From: Dictyostelium discoideum
Lineage: Eukaryota
Assembly (NCBI GenBank): GCA_000004695.1
Contig: CM000151.3
Location: 4,192,001 to 4,256,000, forward strand
Reading direction: 5' to 3'
Length of the DNA stretch: 64,000 nt
The translations under genes were made by a program, and so were the position numbers. Positions within the stretch are counted from its first letter, which is position 1, and the number at the start of each line of letters is the position of its first letter. The notes beneath the pieces are model-generated. The model saw only the letters and a program-made list of their open reading frames with translations. It was not told where the DNA came from and ran no database searches. Shown here piece after piece: positions 1,351-57,696 of the stretch.

Positions 1351-2293
1351 TTAGTTTGAACCTGAACCTAAAAAAAAAATAAAAAAAAAAAAAATAAAAA
1401 TAAAAATAAATGTTAATAAATATTATTGGTGGAGAGTAAAAAAAAAAAAATTAAAAAATTAAAAAAAAAACTCTTACCTGAACCACTACCACTTGCACTT
1501 CCACTACCTGATGAGCTACCACTGCCTGATGATGAACCACTGCCTGATGAGCTACCGCTACCACTACCTGATGATGAACCAGATGATGAACCAGATGATG
1601 AACCAGATGATGAACCAGATGATGAACCAGATGATGATGATGATGATGAACCAGATGATGATGATGATGAACCAGATGATGATGTACCAGATGATGAACC
1701 ACATTGTGACCAACCATTACAATCACCATTACTCCAAGTAGTCCAAGCATCATAACCTTGAGCATTTAAGACAGCAAGAGCACATTGTGCATTGATATCT
1801 GGGTTGAATAAATCACTTGGGGTTGAACAAGCAGTACATAATTCCCCGCAATGTTCAGTTAAGATTTGCCATAAACCTGAAGCACTTGATGGATTATAAG
1901 CTTCTACAATTTTTTCAATTTTATAATTATTATTGTATTTTTAGTTAGTAAAAAAATAAAAAAAAAATAAAAAAAAAAAGTGGAAAATAAAAAAAAAAAA
2001 AAATTGGTAACCAAAAAAAATAAAAAAATAAAAACATACGTGGATTCCAGCTTGATTCATAATAACTGATACACTATTTTTCATTTAATTTTAAAATAAT
2101 AATAATTAATAATTAATAAATAATTCATTTAAAAAAAAAAAAAAAAAATAATAATACATACAATCATATTAGTGGCGGTGCTACCTGAAAAGTATTGACC
2201 TGCTAATGATTGCATTTGTGAACATGATAAGGCTTGACCATTTGCGATGGCAACGGCAACAGCCATTAAAGCAGCGACAGATTTGAAGAACAT
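1351..2293 (-). CDS. Secreted lysozyme-like protein (amoeba Aly-type / GxxQI-motif) with Ser/Gly-rich C-terminal tail; 4 exons
   Basis: Minus-strand exons 2293..2162, 2073..2040, 1903..1478 and 1367..1351, with introns 2161..2074 (GTATGT...AG), 2039..1904 (GTATGT...TAG) and 1477..1368 (GTAAGAG...TAG). Exon 1 reads [44 protein letters not shown], a signal peptide. Exons 2-3 read [80 protein letters not shown] followed by a (GSSS)n tail. It has 8 or more Cys and an SGLWQI motif like the lysozyme GIFQI/GPFQI motifs. The last intron is inferred; the alternative is read-through to TAA about 60 nt further. Confidence 0.5.
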
Positions 2294-2783
2294 TTTATTT
2301 ATTTATATATTATTAGAATTTAGATAATAGGAAAAAGAAAAAGAAAAAAAAAAAAAAAAAAAAAATTTATAAAAAAAAAACACAAGGACTAAAAAAAAAA
2401 ATAAAATTTAAAAAAAAATTATTTTAAAAAAAAAAAATTAAAAAAAATCTAATAACGAAGTATTTTTGGAAAATATCCAACTCTTTTTTTTTTTTTTTTA
2501 ATGGGATCATTATGATTAAAAAAACTTTTTTTACTATTTTTTATTTTTAAAATAAAATACAAATTTGCCTGGTAAAATGAAAATTCATATTTTGGGATTT
2601 TTTAGATCATTATCATATGGTAATAGACTTCCTGGTCGGCCTGATCAAAAATAAATAAAGATATTTTTGAAGATGCAAAGGATAATTTTATAAAAAAAAA
2701 AATAAAAAAAAAAAAAAATAAAGGATTTTATTTTAATTTAATTATATTAAACATAATAAAGAAAAATGATCGCTTTTGAGAAG

Positions 2784-2826
<43 letters not shown>

Positions 2827-2835
2827 GTATTTTGG

Positions 2836-2866
<31 letters not shown>

Positions 2867-3121
2867 ATATTGCGCAAATATATGTTTAAATAGAGAATTT
2901 TTTTGTTTTAATTAAGAACTTTTTTTTTTTTTTTTATTACATTTTATTTTTTATTTTTTATTTTTTTTTTTTTGTTAAAGTATTATTATTATTGGTGATC
3001 ATTTTATTTTTTGAGAAAAAAAAAAAAATATATATATAAAAAAAAAAATTTTTTTTAAACGTAAGAAACTATTTTTTTTTTTTTTTTTTTTTTTTTATGA
3101 TCTAATATTATTATTATTATT

Positions 3122-3378
3122 TTATTGTTTTTCAAACATAAAAGCTAAAGTTCTTCTTTTTGATTTCATGTATGGGTAAATAACATCTTGATGTGGGTGA
3201 TGTGGGACGATGAAATTCTTTAAACCATAAAAAACAACGAAAACGCTGGCATAGTTGATGAAAACAGCGGTTGGGTCACCTTTGAATGGGTTGAGATTTT
3301 CTATGAAATTGATAAATTATTGAGTTTTTATTAATTATAAATTGATATTAATTGTGCATTATAAAGAAAAGAGAGGAG

Positions 3379-5310: not shown

Positions 5311-7299
<1,989 letters not shown>

Positions 7300-7644
7300 G
7301 AAAAAAAAAAAAAAAAAAAAAAAAGAAAAATCTTTATCTAATATAGTGTAATACAAAAATATCTAAAAAAAAAGAAAAAAAAAATATCTGAAAAAAAAAA
7401 AGAAAAAAAAAATAGAAAAAAAAAAAAGAAAAAAAAAATAGAAAAAAAAAAAAAGAAAAAAAAAAAAAATAATAACAAAACCAATTAACCAAAACTTTTT
7501 TTCAAATAAAAAAAACAAACCTTCAAGTAAAAATAAAAAATAAAGATAAAGATTTATAAAAAAAAAAAAAAAATTATTTGTTTTATTTGTTTATTGTAAA
7601 CTTTTTTTTTTTTTTTTCTAAAAATTTTTATTTTATTTTTTTTT

Positions 7645-7688
<44 letters not shown>

Positions 7689-8190
7689 CATTTATTAATT
7701 ATTAAATATATTATTAAATATATTATTAAATGTATTATTTTCATCAAGTTTTTTGGTTATAGTTCAAAAGAAATTTGAACTGCAATCCAAAAACTGCACT
7801 AGAGGAAATAACAGATAAGATGGTTTTATTGGCATCTTAGTGATATACTTGAAGAAATCAAAACCAAAGATGATTTGATAGAATGTCGTAATGATGAATC
7901 ACTTGTTTATTTTTAATAAGTGATGATGAAACGTCATCAAGGAAATGTTCATTAGTTAAAAGTAAGCTTTTTTTTTATAAAATTAATAGATTTTTTTTTG
8001 TAAATTAAACAGATTTTTTTTTTTATGAGTTTACAATTCCACATTAATTATTTTTAAATAGAACAACATTCGTCATCAGTAATAGATTTTTTGTAAAATA
8101 AATAGATTTTTTTTTTTTTTTTTTTTTTTTCAGTTTTTTTTTTTCAGTTTATTAAATTACATTTCTTGTTTTTAATTTATTTTTATTTAT

Positions 8191-9190: not shown

Positions 9191-9628
9191 TTAAATAAAA
9201 ATACCTCTAAAACATTTTTTACCACAACCAATTCTATAACAACATTTTTGATTCTCTCCATAAGCTTTACAATCACTATCTTTTGTACATTGGTCAGTTG
9301 GTGAACAATATATTTCAATTCTATTTTTCGGACAATTTAAAGTTGCAGTAGTTAATACAGATTGGACCAAATTTGCTTTATTACTTGGAACATTTGATGA
9401 TGAGGGTTTTACAAATCCAGAACTTGTTGTTGTTGTTGTTGTTGGAGTATTTGTTGGAGTATTTGTTGGAATATTATTTGATGTAGGAATATTCGTCGTA
9501 GTTGTTGTGGTTTGATTTGGATTTGTAAATGTTACAGATGTTACCCCACAAATACTCAAATTTATAAACAAACAATTAATTAAAAACAAAAAAAATAAAA
9601 TTTTAATAAAATTATTTAACATCATCAT
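9191..9628 (-). CDS. Secreted protein: signal peptide + Thr/Asn-rich linker + C-terminal WAP-type four-disulfide-core domain
   Basis: The ORF starts MMMLNNFIKILFFLFLINCLFINLSICG (signal), then has a (T/N/P)-rich stretch, then CPKNRIEIYCSPTDQCTKDSDCKAYGENQKCCYRIGCGKKC. That fits the WAP 8-Cys spacing CP-x7-C-x5-C-x5-C-x8-CC-x4-C-x3-C. Confidence 0.6.
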   Translation of the reverse strand: MMMLNNFIKILFFLFLINCLFINLSICGVTSVTFTNPNQTTTTTTNIPTSNNIPTNTPTNTPTTTTTTSSGFVKPSSSNVPSNKANLVQSVLTTATLNCPKNRIEIYCSPTDQCTKDSDCKAYGENQKCCYRIGCGKKCFRGIFI

Positions 9629-10892
9629 TTTTGAATTTTTTTTTAATTATTTAATTATTTTTTAAAACTATATATTTTGAAAAAATAAAAATTAATTTTT
9701 TTCTTTACTTGTTGTTTTTTTTCTTCTTTAAAAAAAAAAAAAAAAAAAAAAATAAAAATTATTATTATTTATTATTATAATAATTATTATTATTTAATTT
9801 TTTAAGGGTTTGGTCAATTGATGGATAAATAAATAAATATAATAAAAAAACAAAAATGGGTTGTCTTTATATAGAAAAACTATAAAATGTTTTTAAATAA
9901 AATTATAAATATGAAAAATAAAATAAACAAACAAAATAATAATAATAATAATAAAAATAAAAATAATTAAGGATCAGATTGGTTTCATTTATATGTTGAG
10001 TGAGTTAGTGAGAGTGTGTGGGCGGGTTAGTGTGTGTATTTGTGTTTAGGGAGAGAACCAAAACCAAAATAATAAAAATAAATAAAAAAAAAAAAAAGAT
10101 ATTTATGTATGTATAAGTGTGTGGATATGTGTGAAAATCAATTGTACTAACCTATATATACTTGTGTTTAAAGATTTATTTGATTTTTCAATAAAAGATA
10201 TATTCTAGATTAGGATATTTTTTGTTTTTTTTATACTTTTTTGGTATTATTTTATATATCACCCCCAATTTTTATTATTAAAAAAAATAAAACAAAATAA
10301 AATAAAATAAAATAAAATATTTTAAAAGATATATTATAAAAAATATTATATTTCCACCCTAGGGAAAATCAATTAAAAAATGAAAAAATTCAAAAACTGT
10401 GATATCATTACAAAGGTCATTTTTTTATTTTTTAATTTTTTTATATACAAATTAATATTACCTTTAGTAATAAAAATATAATTTGGATCTTTTTTTTTTT
10501 TTTTTTTTTTTTTTGTTTTCATTAAAATAATAAAAATAAAAATTAAATAAAAAGTGGTTATAAAACAATACAATCAATCAGTTTTTGAAATAAAAAATTA
10601 ACACATACAATTAGTAATAGTATAAATACAAAAACCCCACTTAAAAAATTATATTTTATTTTTTTATTTATATATCTTTTAACCACTTTACACGTATACA
10701 CATAATATTTTTTTCATTTTAAATAAAAAAAAAAAAAGAGAAAAATAATAAATGAAAATATTTTCTTTTAATTTAAATAATAATAATTTAAATATTATTT
10801 AAATTTATATTTATTTATTTTTTATATTTATTTATTTTTTATTTATATTTTTTTTTTTTATTTTTTATTTTTTATTTTTTTATTTTATTTTT

Positions 10893-11337
10893 TTATTTAA
10901 ATTGTTCAATATTTAATTTAAATTCAGAAAATAAATCATTTAAAGATAATTTAACTTGTTTATTATCTTCAGGTAAATCACGTTTTCTAACATTTAAAAT
11001 ATTTGTATCAATTTCTTCTTGACCAACTACAATGATATAATTATATTGAGAGACTGTAGCTTCACGAATTTTCTTTGATAATAATTTTGAATCATTTAAA
11101 TCTACATCAACATCATAACCAGCTAAATTAATTTTAGATTGAATTTCTTGAGCAAATTGATTAAATTTATTTGAAACTGGAATTACAATACATTGACGTG
11201 GTGATAACCAAAATGGCCATTTACCAGCAGTATGTTCCATTAAAATTGCCATCATTCTTTCAACTGAACCAAATAAAGCACGATGAATCATAACTGGACG
11301 ATTTAATGAATTATTGTTATTATTATCATTTATTTCT

Positions 11338-20308: not shown

Positions 20309-20544
<236 letters not shown>

Positions 20545-20839: not shown

Positions 20840-21442
20840 TTTAATATAAATCAAAATCTATTTTCCAGACATTGTTTTAAATAAATAAAAAAATAAAAAA
20901 ATAAAAAAAAATTTTAAAAAAGAAAAATAAAGAAAGAATTTTCTTTTTATTATTTATAGACTTATTTTTTTTTTTTTATTTTTTGTATAATAATCATGGA
21001 AATAGAGCAAAAATTAATATGGATGTGGTAAACGCACAATGAAAAAAAAATTTTTTTTTTTTTTTTTTTTTTTTCATCTATTTTTTTTTTTCATTTTTTT
21101 TTTTATTTTTTTTTTATTTTAATTTTTGTTTTACTCTGTTTAGTAACAATAATAACAAAAAAAAAATATTTAAATATGAGATCAGCTACTAAATTATTTA
21201 AAAATTTGAGCAAAAGTGTTGTTCAATTAAAAACTGTTAAACCAGTATCATCATTAAATTTTGGATATATCAAAACTAGACAATTTTCAACATCAACTAC
21301 TGACTCATCAAATTTATTTTTAAATAACAATAATCAATTTCAAAATTTTACTTTCCCAACAAAACGTAGGTTTTATTTATTTATATATTTAATTATTTAT
21401 TTTTTTCATTTTGTTTAGAAAAAAAATAAAAAAAATAAAAAA

Positions 21443-21802: not shown

Positions 21803-22537
21803 ATGACTCATCCACATTGCCATAAAAAAGAACAAATTAGAATCAGAAAACCAGCTCCAGCTTTCAAAGGTCAAGCTGTTGTCAATGGTGAATTCAAAGA
21901 AATCTCATTAGATGACTACAAAGGTAAATAAAAATAAATTTAATGTCAAATTACATAAAAAAAAAAAAAAAATTAATTAAATACTAATATTTATTTTTTG
22001 CAATATCTAATTATTTTTTTTTTTCTTAATATATATACAGGTAAATACTTATACCTCTTCTTCTACCCATTAGATTTCACTTTTGTATGCCCAACTGAAA
22101 TTATTGCTTTCAGTAATGCTGCTGAAGAATTCAAAAAAGCCGGCTGTGAACTTGTTGGTTGTTCAATTGATTCACCATTCACCCATTTAGCTTGGATCAA
22201 TACCCCACGTAAAGAAGGTGGTTTAGGTGGAATCAACATCCCACTCTTATCCGATTTAACCCATCAAATCTCAAAAGACTACGGTGTTTACATTGAAGAA
22301 GATGGTCACACCATTAGAGGTAGCATTCTCATCGACAAAGAAGGTCTTGTTAGAGTCATTACAATGAACGATAATCCAGTTGGCCGTAGTGTAGATGAAG
22401 CAATCCGTACTTTGAAAGCCTTGAAGTTTACAGATCAATTCGGCGAGGTATGTCCAGCCAATTGGTCAGAGGGCGATAAATCAATGAAAGCAGATCCAAA
22501 AGGTTCAAAAGAATACTTTGAAGCTGTTAATAAATAA
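21803..22537 (+). CDS. 2-Cys peroxiredoxin (typical Prx1-4 subfamily), 2 exons
   Basis: Exon 1 21803..21923 ends [40 protein letters not shown]+G, with GTAAAT donor in phase 1. Exon 2 22041..22537 reads [23 protein letters not shown]...[15 protein letters not shown]...GEVCPANW... Both the peroxidatic FTFVCPTEI and resolving VCP motifs are present. Confidence 0.9.
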
Positions 22538-23322
22538 ATGGTTCAATCCTTTTTTGTAATTCTCTCATCATATTTTTTTTTTTTTTTTTTCATTTTTCAT
22601 TTTTCACTTTCATTTTTCATTTTTTTTTAAAAAAAAAAAAAGCGAGGGGCATTTCGCCACACTTTTTAATTTTTTTTTTTTTTGATTAATATTTTTTTAA
22701 TAATACTGTTTTAAAATGTGTTTGTATATTAATCAGTGTCACTATAAGATTTTTTTTTTTTTTATTATAATTTTTTTATTTGAAAACTTTGGGTGTCAGT
22801 AAAATTTCTAAAACTAATTGACAAAATTCAATTTGTTTTTTATTATTTAAGCAATCTTTTTTTTTTTTTTTTTTGTATTATTATTTTCCAAACCATTAAC
22901 AATAATTATTATTATTATTTAAATTGTTGATTATAAAATTAAATTAATGATACGCACATTTTTTTTTCTTATTGTAATTTGGACAAAACATTAATTTGGA
23001 CTAAAGTTAAACACCTTGAAAGGGATTTCCAAAGTATAAGAACCCAAAGTGAATTAAATGACGAGTTGATTGAGAAATACCAACTTTAACAATAATTATA
23101 GGAACAAAACTTGGTCTTCCATAAGGTAAAACTGTTTGTCTCACAGAAAAAATTAATAAACAACCACAAATATATTTTAAAAAATGAATGCACTGAACTC
23201 TATTGTCCTTTGAAGCAATTAGAAGGAATTAATTCAATAAGTTTAGGAATTTTCAAATTAAATAAAATACTATGAGTTTTTATTTTATTCAAAATGAATT
23301 AAAAATCAAATTAATAGAGTCG

Positions 23323-23707: not shown

Positions 23708-25739
23708 TTAATTGGTTTTATTAAATAGTAGTTCAAATTTTGAATGAATTTCAATATTGTCAAATTTAAGATAATTTCCAATTTTAATGAAAAGTGATTT
23801 ATTGAAAATAGTTGGATAATTATTTAAAAATAAAATAAAAGACATTTTATCATTTTCAATTAAGCAACAACATAAAATGTGATGTGGAATGATTAATTTA
23901 ATTTTTATTTTTAATTGGTTTTCAAATACATTTAGAGGGAAACCATTTGATATTTCAAGTTCAACTGAATCCTCACCTATTACCAAAAAACCTTTTTTTA
24001 TTTCTTCTAAGATATGATTTGAAATAAAATTTGATATTGGTGGAGAAAAATAACCATTTACTTGGATAGATGGATTAATTTTAATTGCTTCTTTTATCAT
24101 TCTAATAAATGTATTAAAATTATCAATCATATGAATATTATCAAAATATGAGTTTTTAATTTCATCATTTATAATAAAAAATTCTGGACCTGAAAGTGCA
24201 ATTAGAAATAATGAGAAAATACCTGGATGATTAACACCATTTTCTTTAGATATTTTAACCATTTCATCAAATGAAATTATCGATGCTTTTCTATTTATAC
24301 TTTCCATTAATATTTTATATTGATTAACCAATTTTGAACTTTTTAAATAAATGTAATTATAATTAAATTCAGAAAATAATGAATCTTTATAATATTTAAA
24401 AACTAAATTCATTATTTTATCATTTGTAATTGATCTGAAAATAATTTTACAACTTTTTTTTTGCATCGATTGCATTTGCTTTGAAAACTTCTTCAATTAA
24501 GTATAAATTACAAGTTAAAAGAATATTTTTAATTATATCAATTTCAAAAGATGATCCTCGAAGACTTGAATTACCATTTGATTTGATTTTATTATTTCTT
24601 ACAATTTCAAGTAACCGACTTGTATAATTCTTTAAGATTTCTAAATTATTTCTAAATGTTACTTCCATTGTAAAAATTTTTTTGGCACTAAGATTAACCA
24701 TTGATTCATTTTCAACCAAGTTTTTAAAATATTCATTTAAATAAAAATGAAATTCAAGATCATGTTTTGAATTATATAATAAATATTTTTCATTAATTAA
24801 TTCTATTATTTTTTTCTTTTGAATATTAAAATTCTCTGGGAAAATTAAATGATACATTTGAAGTGCCACGACATTTTTACATTGAACAATTATGGTAATC
24901 CATTTATTAAAATCACCAAAATTTATTTGACCTTCTCCACTACCACAAAATGATGTATTAGAGAATAAAAATTTGAAATAATTTCTATTTTTAAAATCAT
25001 TTTCTCTAATGAATTGGATTGTTTTGATAATTTCTTTCTCACTTTTTGAAAGATCACCTTTGTTTATTGAATTGGCAATTCCTCTAGCTAAGGATTTCTC
25101 TAAGTTTTTACAATTTAATTTATAAAAAAGATTTTTATAAATTTCATAAGCTAAAAATTTATTCCTAAAAACTGTCAAATAGAGAGATTTTGTATTATTA
25201 TCTTGATTGTTTGTGTTACATGGAATATTTTTTATTTCTATTAAACTTGAATTTGATCCAATAAGTATCTCCTCTGAACTAAAAGATAAAACTCCACCAT
25301 CAATCAATTGATTTATTGAAATATTTAAAAAGTTACTGATCTTCTTAAATTTTTTATTATTCTTTGATAACTCTATAGTTGTAATAGGAATTGAAACAAA
25401 TTTAAAAATACTATTTATATAGGTTAAAGTCTCTTGAGTGAGATTTAATCTTTGATTTTCCCATTGAAACATATGTAAATAAACTATACAATTTGGAATC
25501 AATCCATCTTTAAATTCTCTTTTTCCAATGTAATTGAAATAAAATTGATTATTATCATTTCCATTAAAAAATTGTTGGTTTTGGTAACAATCAAAACACA
25601 AATCATTGAAAACAAAAATAAAATCAATTTCAGAAACTTTTTTTGGAAATGAATCAGATGTTAATATATATTCACCAACATTATAAATAAAAATATTCTT
25701 TATTAAATTAAAAGAACCATTCTTTGATGTTGACTCCAT
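23708..25739 (-). CDS. Hypothetical ~690-aa protein encoded by two overlapping ORFs (25739..24447 and 24496..23708) that fuse if one A is removed from an A9 run; frameshifted gene or pseudogene
   Basis: The upstream ORF ends ...AIDAKKKL* at an A9 run (plus-strand T9 at 24464-24472). The downstream ORF in the -1 frame continues SCKIIFRSITNDK... Reading A8 gives one continuous frame. No intron fits, because the gap is under 20 nt. Confidence 0.5.
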
Positions 25740-25953
25740 TTTTAATTTTTAAAAAAATTTAAAATTAATTTTATTAATTAAAATGAATAAAAAAATTTTA
25801 AAAAATTATAGTGTGTGTGGTTTTAGGATCCTAAAAAAAAAAAAAAAAAAAATTTCAAAGATTATAGTTAAATGTTATAAAAATGTAATAAGCTTTATTT
25901 TTATTTGGGAAAATTTTAAAAAAATAACATTTTTACAAAATTTAAATTTGTGT

Positions 25954-54507: not shown

Positions 54508-57696
<3,189 letters not shown>

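Follow-up and report, generated by a model that had tools for sequence, protein, structure and literature searches.

Two Dictyostelium discoideum AX4 gene models joined in one frame by a one-base change in an A homopolymer

On the minus strand of Dictyostelium discoideum AX4 chromosome 2, two long open reading frames (ORFs) meet at a run of adenines. The locus raises the question of whether these are two genes, one gene with an intron, one gene that depends on recoding, or one gene whose frame is broken by a single base, and, in the last case, whether the break belongs to the cells or to the reference sequence. We analysed the locus in a stretch of 64,000 nucleotides (assembly GCA_000004695.1, contig CM000151.3, positions 4,192,001 to 4,256,000; hereafter the window), in which all positions below are counted and whose base composition is 20% GC. 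The ORF list contains a minus-strand ORF at 25739..24447, which starts with ATG and encodes 430 aa, and a second one at 24496..23708, which encodes 262 aa when counted from a TTG, and the two share a stretch of 50 nt, exactly as the preliminary description of this DNA had reported. A six-frame scan of the 64 kb gave 42 stop-to-stop ORFs of at least 120 codons, among which these two form the sole overlapping pair on the same strand. Since the pair is unique in this respect and both halves have homologues, it represents real coding sequence and not a chance arrangement. A further "split ORF" at 55180-56289 on the minus strand, a same-frame pair with one stop between its parts (55684-55686) and with poly-L, poly-V and FGVFG repeats, was rejected as an interrupted gene, because it lies antisense to a plus-strand gene rich in repeats.

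The frameshift site is an A9 homopolymer at 24454..24462 of the minus strand (T9 on the plus strand), which is one base longer than an in-frame A8. The junction reads GAT GCA AAA AAA AAG TTG TAA in the window, so that the upstream ORF ends in DAKKKL and then TAA; this stop in the shifted frame lies at 24447..24449, two codons past the A-run (...K K K L *). When one A is deleted, the junction becomes GAT GCA AAA AAA AGT TGT (D A K K S C), and the two ORFs fuse into a single open frame of 676 aa with no internal stop. The fusion on reading A9 as A8 had been predicted in the preliminary description and holds, but its product had been given as 690 aa and the run had been placed at 24464-24472, ten bases away from the true position and still within the reported span. 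The whole gene at 23708..25739 of the minus strand is thus an intron-less single coding sequence (CDS) of 676 aa when the run is read as A8, and this translation is identical to the protein P0001. A tblastn search with P0001 matched 25739..24456 and 24460..23711 of the window at 100%, and the gene is present there as a single copy. At position 25749 of the minus strand, 10 nt 5' of the ATG, AX4 has a private A, while G is found in L001 (the DNA of the P0001 locus in a newer assembly), in the strain of the Logan contigs and in L008 (a cryptic-species orthologue).

Current annotation treats the two pieces as separate. An exact-sequence look-up identified the upstream ORF (24447..25739, minus strand) as the AX4 model DDB_G0274861 (XP_644054.1, UniProt Q555L2, 430 aa), and the downstream ORF, which runs in the +1 frame over 23708..24496 of the same strand in the ORF list, contains the model DDB_G0274543 (XP_644053.1) at 24412..23708, which has 234 aa and starts with MNLVFKYY. 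Both are annotated as hypothetical proteins of D. discoideum AX4 chromosome 2, and their CDSs are separated by a gap of 34 nt (24447 versus 24412).

Comparison with other strains and relatives revealed that the joined frame is the ordinary state of the gene. P0001, which equals the A8 translation, is ACTFIT_003463, a 676-aa protein of a newer D. discoideum assembly (GCA_054883475.1), and across the CDS the sole difference between its DNA (L001) and the window is one A fewer in the run. Six short-read Logan contigs (SRR26869256/57/58/66/68 and SRR28564543) all carry A8 as well, and they come from a different strain, as judged from a protein identity of 674/676 (2 aa differences) and 6-8 SNPs. 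In the cryptic-species orthologue L008 the run is reduced to A6 (GCT AAA AAA TGT), and in two paralogues of L010, which are 45% identical, it is interrupted (CAA AGG AAT and CAA AGA AAT); in all of these the same frame continues, and in the homologues the frame that spans the junction runs on through ...C(K/E)(I/V)IFRSI.... Because the A6 orthologue and the 45% paralogues share the A8 frame, this frame is the ancestral one, and since these relatives stay in frame without a long A-run, the result is independent of homopolymer calling. Collinear intact homologues over the junction are the proteins P0001-P0005 and P0008, together with the DNA of L001, L002-L007, L008, L009 and L010, and the frame is intact in all other sampled genomes, comprising two other D. 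discoideum strains, ACTFIW and two cryptic-species assemblies. Among the sequences compared, A9 is present in AX4 only. Within the family alignment the break falls into the best-conserved core, between the invariant stretches I415-A426 and I433-I437.

Here, we need to consider whether the A8 calls are themselves reliable. L001 is shorter than the window at 14 of the 15 sites with indels. A preprint that is a plausible, although unproven, source of the ACTFI* assemblies used Nanopore R9.4.1 reads polished with Racon and Medaka only (10.1101/2025.10.22.684067). When run lengths were tallied per length, however, the homopolymer compression of L001 was limited to runs of at least 16 nt, and L001 and the window agreed at 13 of 14 9-mers, 8 of 8 10-mers and 9 of 9 11-mers, the run at 24454-24462 being the sole discordant one among the 31 runs of 9-11 nt over 12 kb. 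Since compression occurs only in the runs of at least 16 nt, the A8 call of L001 stands, and we rejected long-read compression as its explanation. In the short-read contig L002, all other runs within its reach are as in the window. The 2.2-2.3 kb Logan contigs were also considered as A8 transcripts, and as evidence for RNA they were rejected, since each end falls on a T or A run of the genome; as short-read data they still support A8 well in a further strain. The three explanations offered by the preliminary description, namely an error of the assembly or in the homopolymer, a polymorphism between strains, or a recent pseudogenisation, stand in the light of A8 in the other D. discoideum assembly and in the short-read contigs of a further strain.

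With this comparison at hand, the view that DDB_G0274861 and DDB_G0274543 are truly separate genes, which is that of the current RefSeq and UniProt annotation, becomes extremely unlikely. Both halves are collinear with single proteins in all other genomes, the 34 nt between the two CDSs leave no room for a separate promoter, and the 234-aa model begins within the conserved, helix-rich core.

A spliceosomal intron over the overlap would leave the genome sequence correct and put the mRNA in frame. The preliminary description had dismissed an intron, and its conclusion holds, as the junction is conserved coding sequence, while the reason that it gave, an overlap of fewer than 20 nt, is at odds with the 50 nt that it reported itself. 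The dismissal needed separate evidence, since four GT..AG deletions, of 16, 19, 109 and 127 nt, do restore the frame. The 109- and 127-nt strings that can be drawn across the junction have a normal Dictyostelium intron length and resemble in this respect the real 117-nt intron in the window, whereas 16-19 nt is far under the intron sizes of D. discoideum. However, the candidate intervals encode residues that are kept down to the 45%-identical paralogues (...LIEEVF.SN.IDA...IFRSI...IM.LVFKYYKD). The 16-nt string GTAAAATTATTTTCAG at 24435..24450 of the minus strand, for example, restores the frame upon removal but encodes the conserved CKIIFRS, whose counterparts CEVIFRS and SEIIFRS show that the motif is conserved in all homologues. 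The GC content of the candidate intervals is 0.19-0.21, compared with a gene mean of 0.21, 0.10-0.135 in flanking non-coding DNA and 0.094 in the real peroxiredoxin intron, and other strains carry the same interval with A8, so that splicing is unneeded there. Both the tiny (16/19 nt, ciliate-style) and the normal-size (109/127 nt) introns were rejected by conservation and exon-like composition, in which the junction differs from the genuine neighbouring intron with its 117 nt and 9% GC. Frame-restoring GT..AG strings are easily found in AT-rich DNA and are no evidence of an intron, and the probability of this reading is vanishingly small. Based on these observations, the ORFs 25739..24447 and 24496..23708 are one gene, its ancestral frame is the A8 frame, and it has no intron.

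The internal control for real intron features was taken from a 2-Cys peroxiredoxin gene at 21803-22537 on the plus strand, which encodes 205 aa with AhpC-TSA and 1-cysPrx_C domains. Its intron at 21924..22040 (plus strand) is 117 nt long with 9.4% GC, has the borders GTAAAT...ACAG and contains stops in all frames. Upstream of this gene, at about 21176-21366 on the plus strand, lies an exon-like ORF, MRSATKLFKNLSKSVVQLKTVKPVSS...FPTKR, followed by GT. This ORF has the look of a targeting peptide, and the peroxiredoxin gene, whose model in the newer assembly has 259 aa versus 205 aa, may use it as an alternative first exon. The ORF contains three AX4-private SNPs within 55 nt (21232, 21274 and 21286; two K/N changes and one synonymous), at which L001, L009 and L010 are concordant against AX4. 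In the non-coding DNA 3' of the peroxiredoxin gene, at 22777, the window has A7 versus A8 in L001. Apart from this run and the one at 24454-24462, no short homopolymer differs in length between AX4 and ACTFIT over 12 kb; the remaining indels between them fall in runs of at least 12 nt, where the new assembly nearly always has the shorter run. A perfect (CAA)40 array at 20339-20458, followed by 18-nt repeats at 20452-20507, is a typical Dictyostelium coding or low-complexity repeat.

If A9 were genuine, the split could also be regulatory, with +1 ribosomal frameshifting or sliding, or RNA-polymerase slippage to A8 transcripts, producing the full protein. A9 belongs to a known type of slippery sequence on which transcriptional slippage and ribosome sliding on poly(A) tracts occur, and the loss of one A is the kind of shift that slippage produces. 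The locus also resembles programmed +1 frameshifting and poly(A) transcriptional slippage in having a slippery A-run where two overlapping frames meet. It differs from these systems in that the frameshift is not conserved: a programmed frameshift would be expected to be conserved, and yet in all orthologues and paralogues the run is A8, A6 or interrupted and the frame is kept. Since no relative needs a frameshift, programmed recoding is unsupported, and A9 runs in long ORFs are common, with 13 of them in the window, without implying recoding. We consider programmed recoding at this site highly unlikely.

The gene that results from the fusion is a fast-evolving, weakly constrained orphan, and its family is confined to the D. 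discoideum complex. The fused protein has five relatives, each from Dictyostelium discoideum or "D. cf. discoideum", and when 1.84 billion representatives were searched in full with HMMER, five proteins only were returned, all of the D. discoideum complex. The dN/dS values against orthologues and paralogues were 0.4-0.7 for both halves and 1.0 in one C-terminal comparison. No Pfam family matched the window protein at E <= 0.01, and a profile search of the PDB gave no match. FNIP (PF05725) is a repeat family that is expanded in Dictyostelium, and the likeness to FNIP-repeat proteins consists of a weak match in one of the five relatives (E = 0.0016, sub-threshold); the match is confined to this member and the window's protein has none, so membership of the FNIP-repeat family, for which the gathering threshold was not reached, is not established. 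The AlphaFold model built on five sequences reached a mean pLDDT of 45 and is unreliable, and its least poor region, within this limit, is a helical one at residues 360-480 that spans the junction. Copy number varies among the relatives. The ACTFIZ cryptic-species assembly (L010) holds three family copies in tandem (1498-3258, 6001-7734 and 9526-11182), an extra copy in ACTFIW is annotated as two fragments of 164 and 305 aa (ACTFIW_005365/005366; P0010 and P0009), and the ACTFIW orthologue P0003 has about 140 N-terminal residues missing. The triplication and the fragments suggest either that the family undergoes birth-and-death turnover or that assembly and annotation are broken in these genomes.

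The feature is thus an ordinary one-base homopolymer frameshift, either a reference error or a strain allele, by which an orphan gene is split into two models. The ancestral and functional lysine-coding run is A8, to which the AX4 reference adds one A; the extra base shifts the frame, adds K-L and leads to the TAA stop at 24449..24447, which removes the C-terminal 248 residues, and the AX4 annotation then built two "hypothetical protein" models from the pieces. As to the origin of the extra A, we marginally prefer a consensus homopolymer-length error in the Sanger-era reference, to which we assign a probability of about 0.48, and under which real AX4 cells would carry an intact gene; this explanation and that of a real allele are nearly tied. 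In favour of an error, no further decay is seen in the downstream ORF, although none would be expected at low diversity, and the frame is intact in every other sampled genome. We also leaned on the finding that AX4 is the outlier at all four nearby SNPs that can be polarised cleanly, three of which fall into 55 nt of the exon-like ORF upstream of the peroxiredoxin gene, as clustered private differences are what a low-quality consensus stretch would produce. When the SNPs between AX4 and L001 were polarised with outgroups, AX4 was derived at the 4 clean sites and L001 possibly at 1, a result that is not significant because three of the four AX4-derived sites form one 55-nt cluster. The same private derived substitutions, which lie within 3-4 kb, can be read on the other side as the mark of a distinct AX4 haplotype in this region. 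A Sanger consensus is normally reliable at a 9-base run, which counts against an error and in favour of a real allele. On the other hand, resequencing of three AX4 mutation-accumulation lines gave 1916 candidate departures from the reference that the lines had in common. The authors explained them as reference errors or as differences between the stock and the reference, so that discrepancies at about 1e-4 per base are documented (PMC3466296).

A reading to which we give only slightly less weight is that A9 is real in AX4, inherited from the wild isolate NC4 or gained in the laboratory lineage, and that a replication-slippage insertion (A8 to A9) recently frameshifted a dispensable orphan gene. 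AX4 would then make at most a truncated protein of 430 aa, and the locus would be a pseudogene or null allele that is young and specific to the strain. The indel rate of D. discoideum is about twice its substitution rate, and the indels in simple sequence repeats affect mainly A:T homopolymers, many of them coding (PMC7466956). AX4 and L001 are distinct strains with 9 SNPs in 12 kb, and with indels at about twice the rate of substitutions a real private 1-nt indel would be expected at roughly this frequency. The fast evolution of the gene, with dN/dS of 0.4-1.0, points to weak constraint under which a loss-of-function allele could persist, and the duplicates and fragments of the family in other strains fit the same picture. 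Against a real allele, A9 is absent from the read-derived assemblies in the protein collection, where no read-derived assembly has either of the two forms identical to AX4, no Logan source of the 430-aa product was found and the 90% cluster has four members only, and the AX4 reference is documented as differing from AX4 stocks at many sites. A metagenome scan for the A8 or the A9 allele gave no match, the gene IDs and SRR run numbers were not mentioned in the literature searched, and neither DDB_G0274861 nor DDB_G0274543 is listed in the transcriptome re-annotation supplements. Resequencing papers remove pre-existing variants without listing them.

If A9 is genuine, some 676-aa protein might still be made through accidental rescue, by slippage of RNA polymerase II or of the ribosome on the lysine run. 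Slippage-rescued frameshifts on poly(A) tracts have been described in AT-rich endosymbiont genomes, and such a rescue here would suggest a general buffer in a eukaryote with 78% AT and thousands of coding A-runs. A milder alternative is an orphan family with birth-and-death turnover and segregating null alleles, as in recognition or conflict genes. We regard these possibilities as highly improbable.

A consensus error in the reference stays the slightly favoured origin of the extra A, and whichever origin applies, DDB_G0274861 and DDB_G0274543 are one locus and should be merged once the sequence is corrected, or else marked as an allele with a frameshift. Analyses of knock-outs, expression or orthology are slightly wrong where they count two genes here. 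The practical value is small, amounting to an annotation correction, and no new mechanism is involved.

Among known systems, two more bear comparison with this locus. The change seen here, of 1 nt in a coding A:T homopolymer with a premature stop as its outcome, matches the documented indel spectrum of D. discoideum (PMC7466956). The difference is that our case is known from the reference sequence alone. In the other system, reference consensus errors that split ORFs, adjacent hypothetical models on the same strand fuse after a 1-nt homopolymer correction, as do the two models here. Resequencing of the S. cerevisiae S288C reference reportedly led to ORF merges. Our site shares with such errors that the fused product matches the intact orthologues and that the reference in which it lies differs from AX4 stocks at many sites (PMC3466296).
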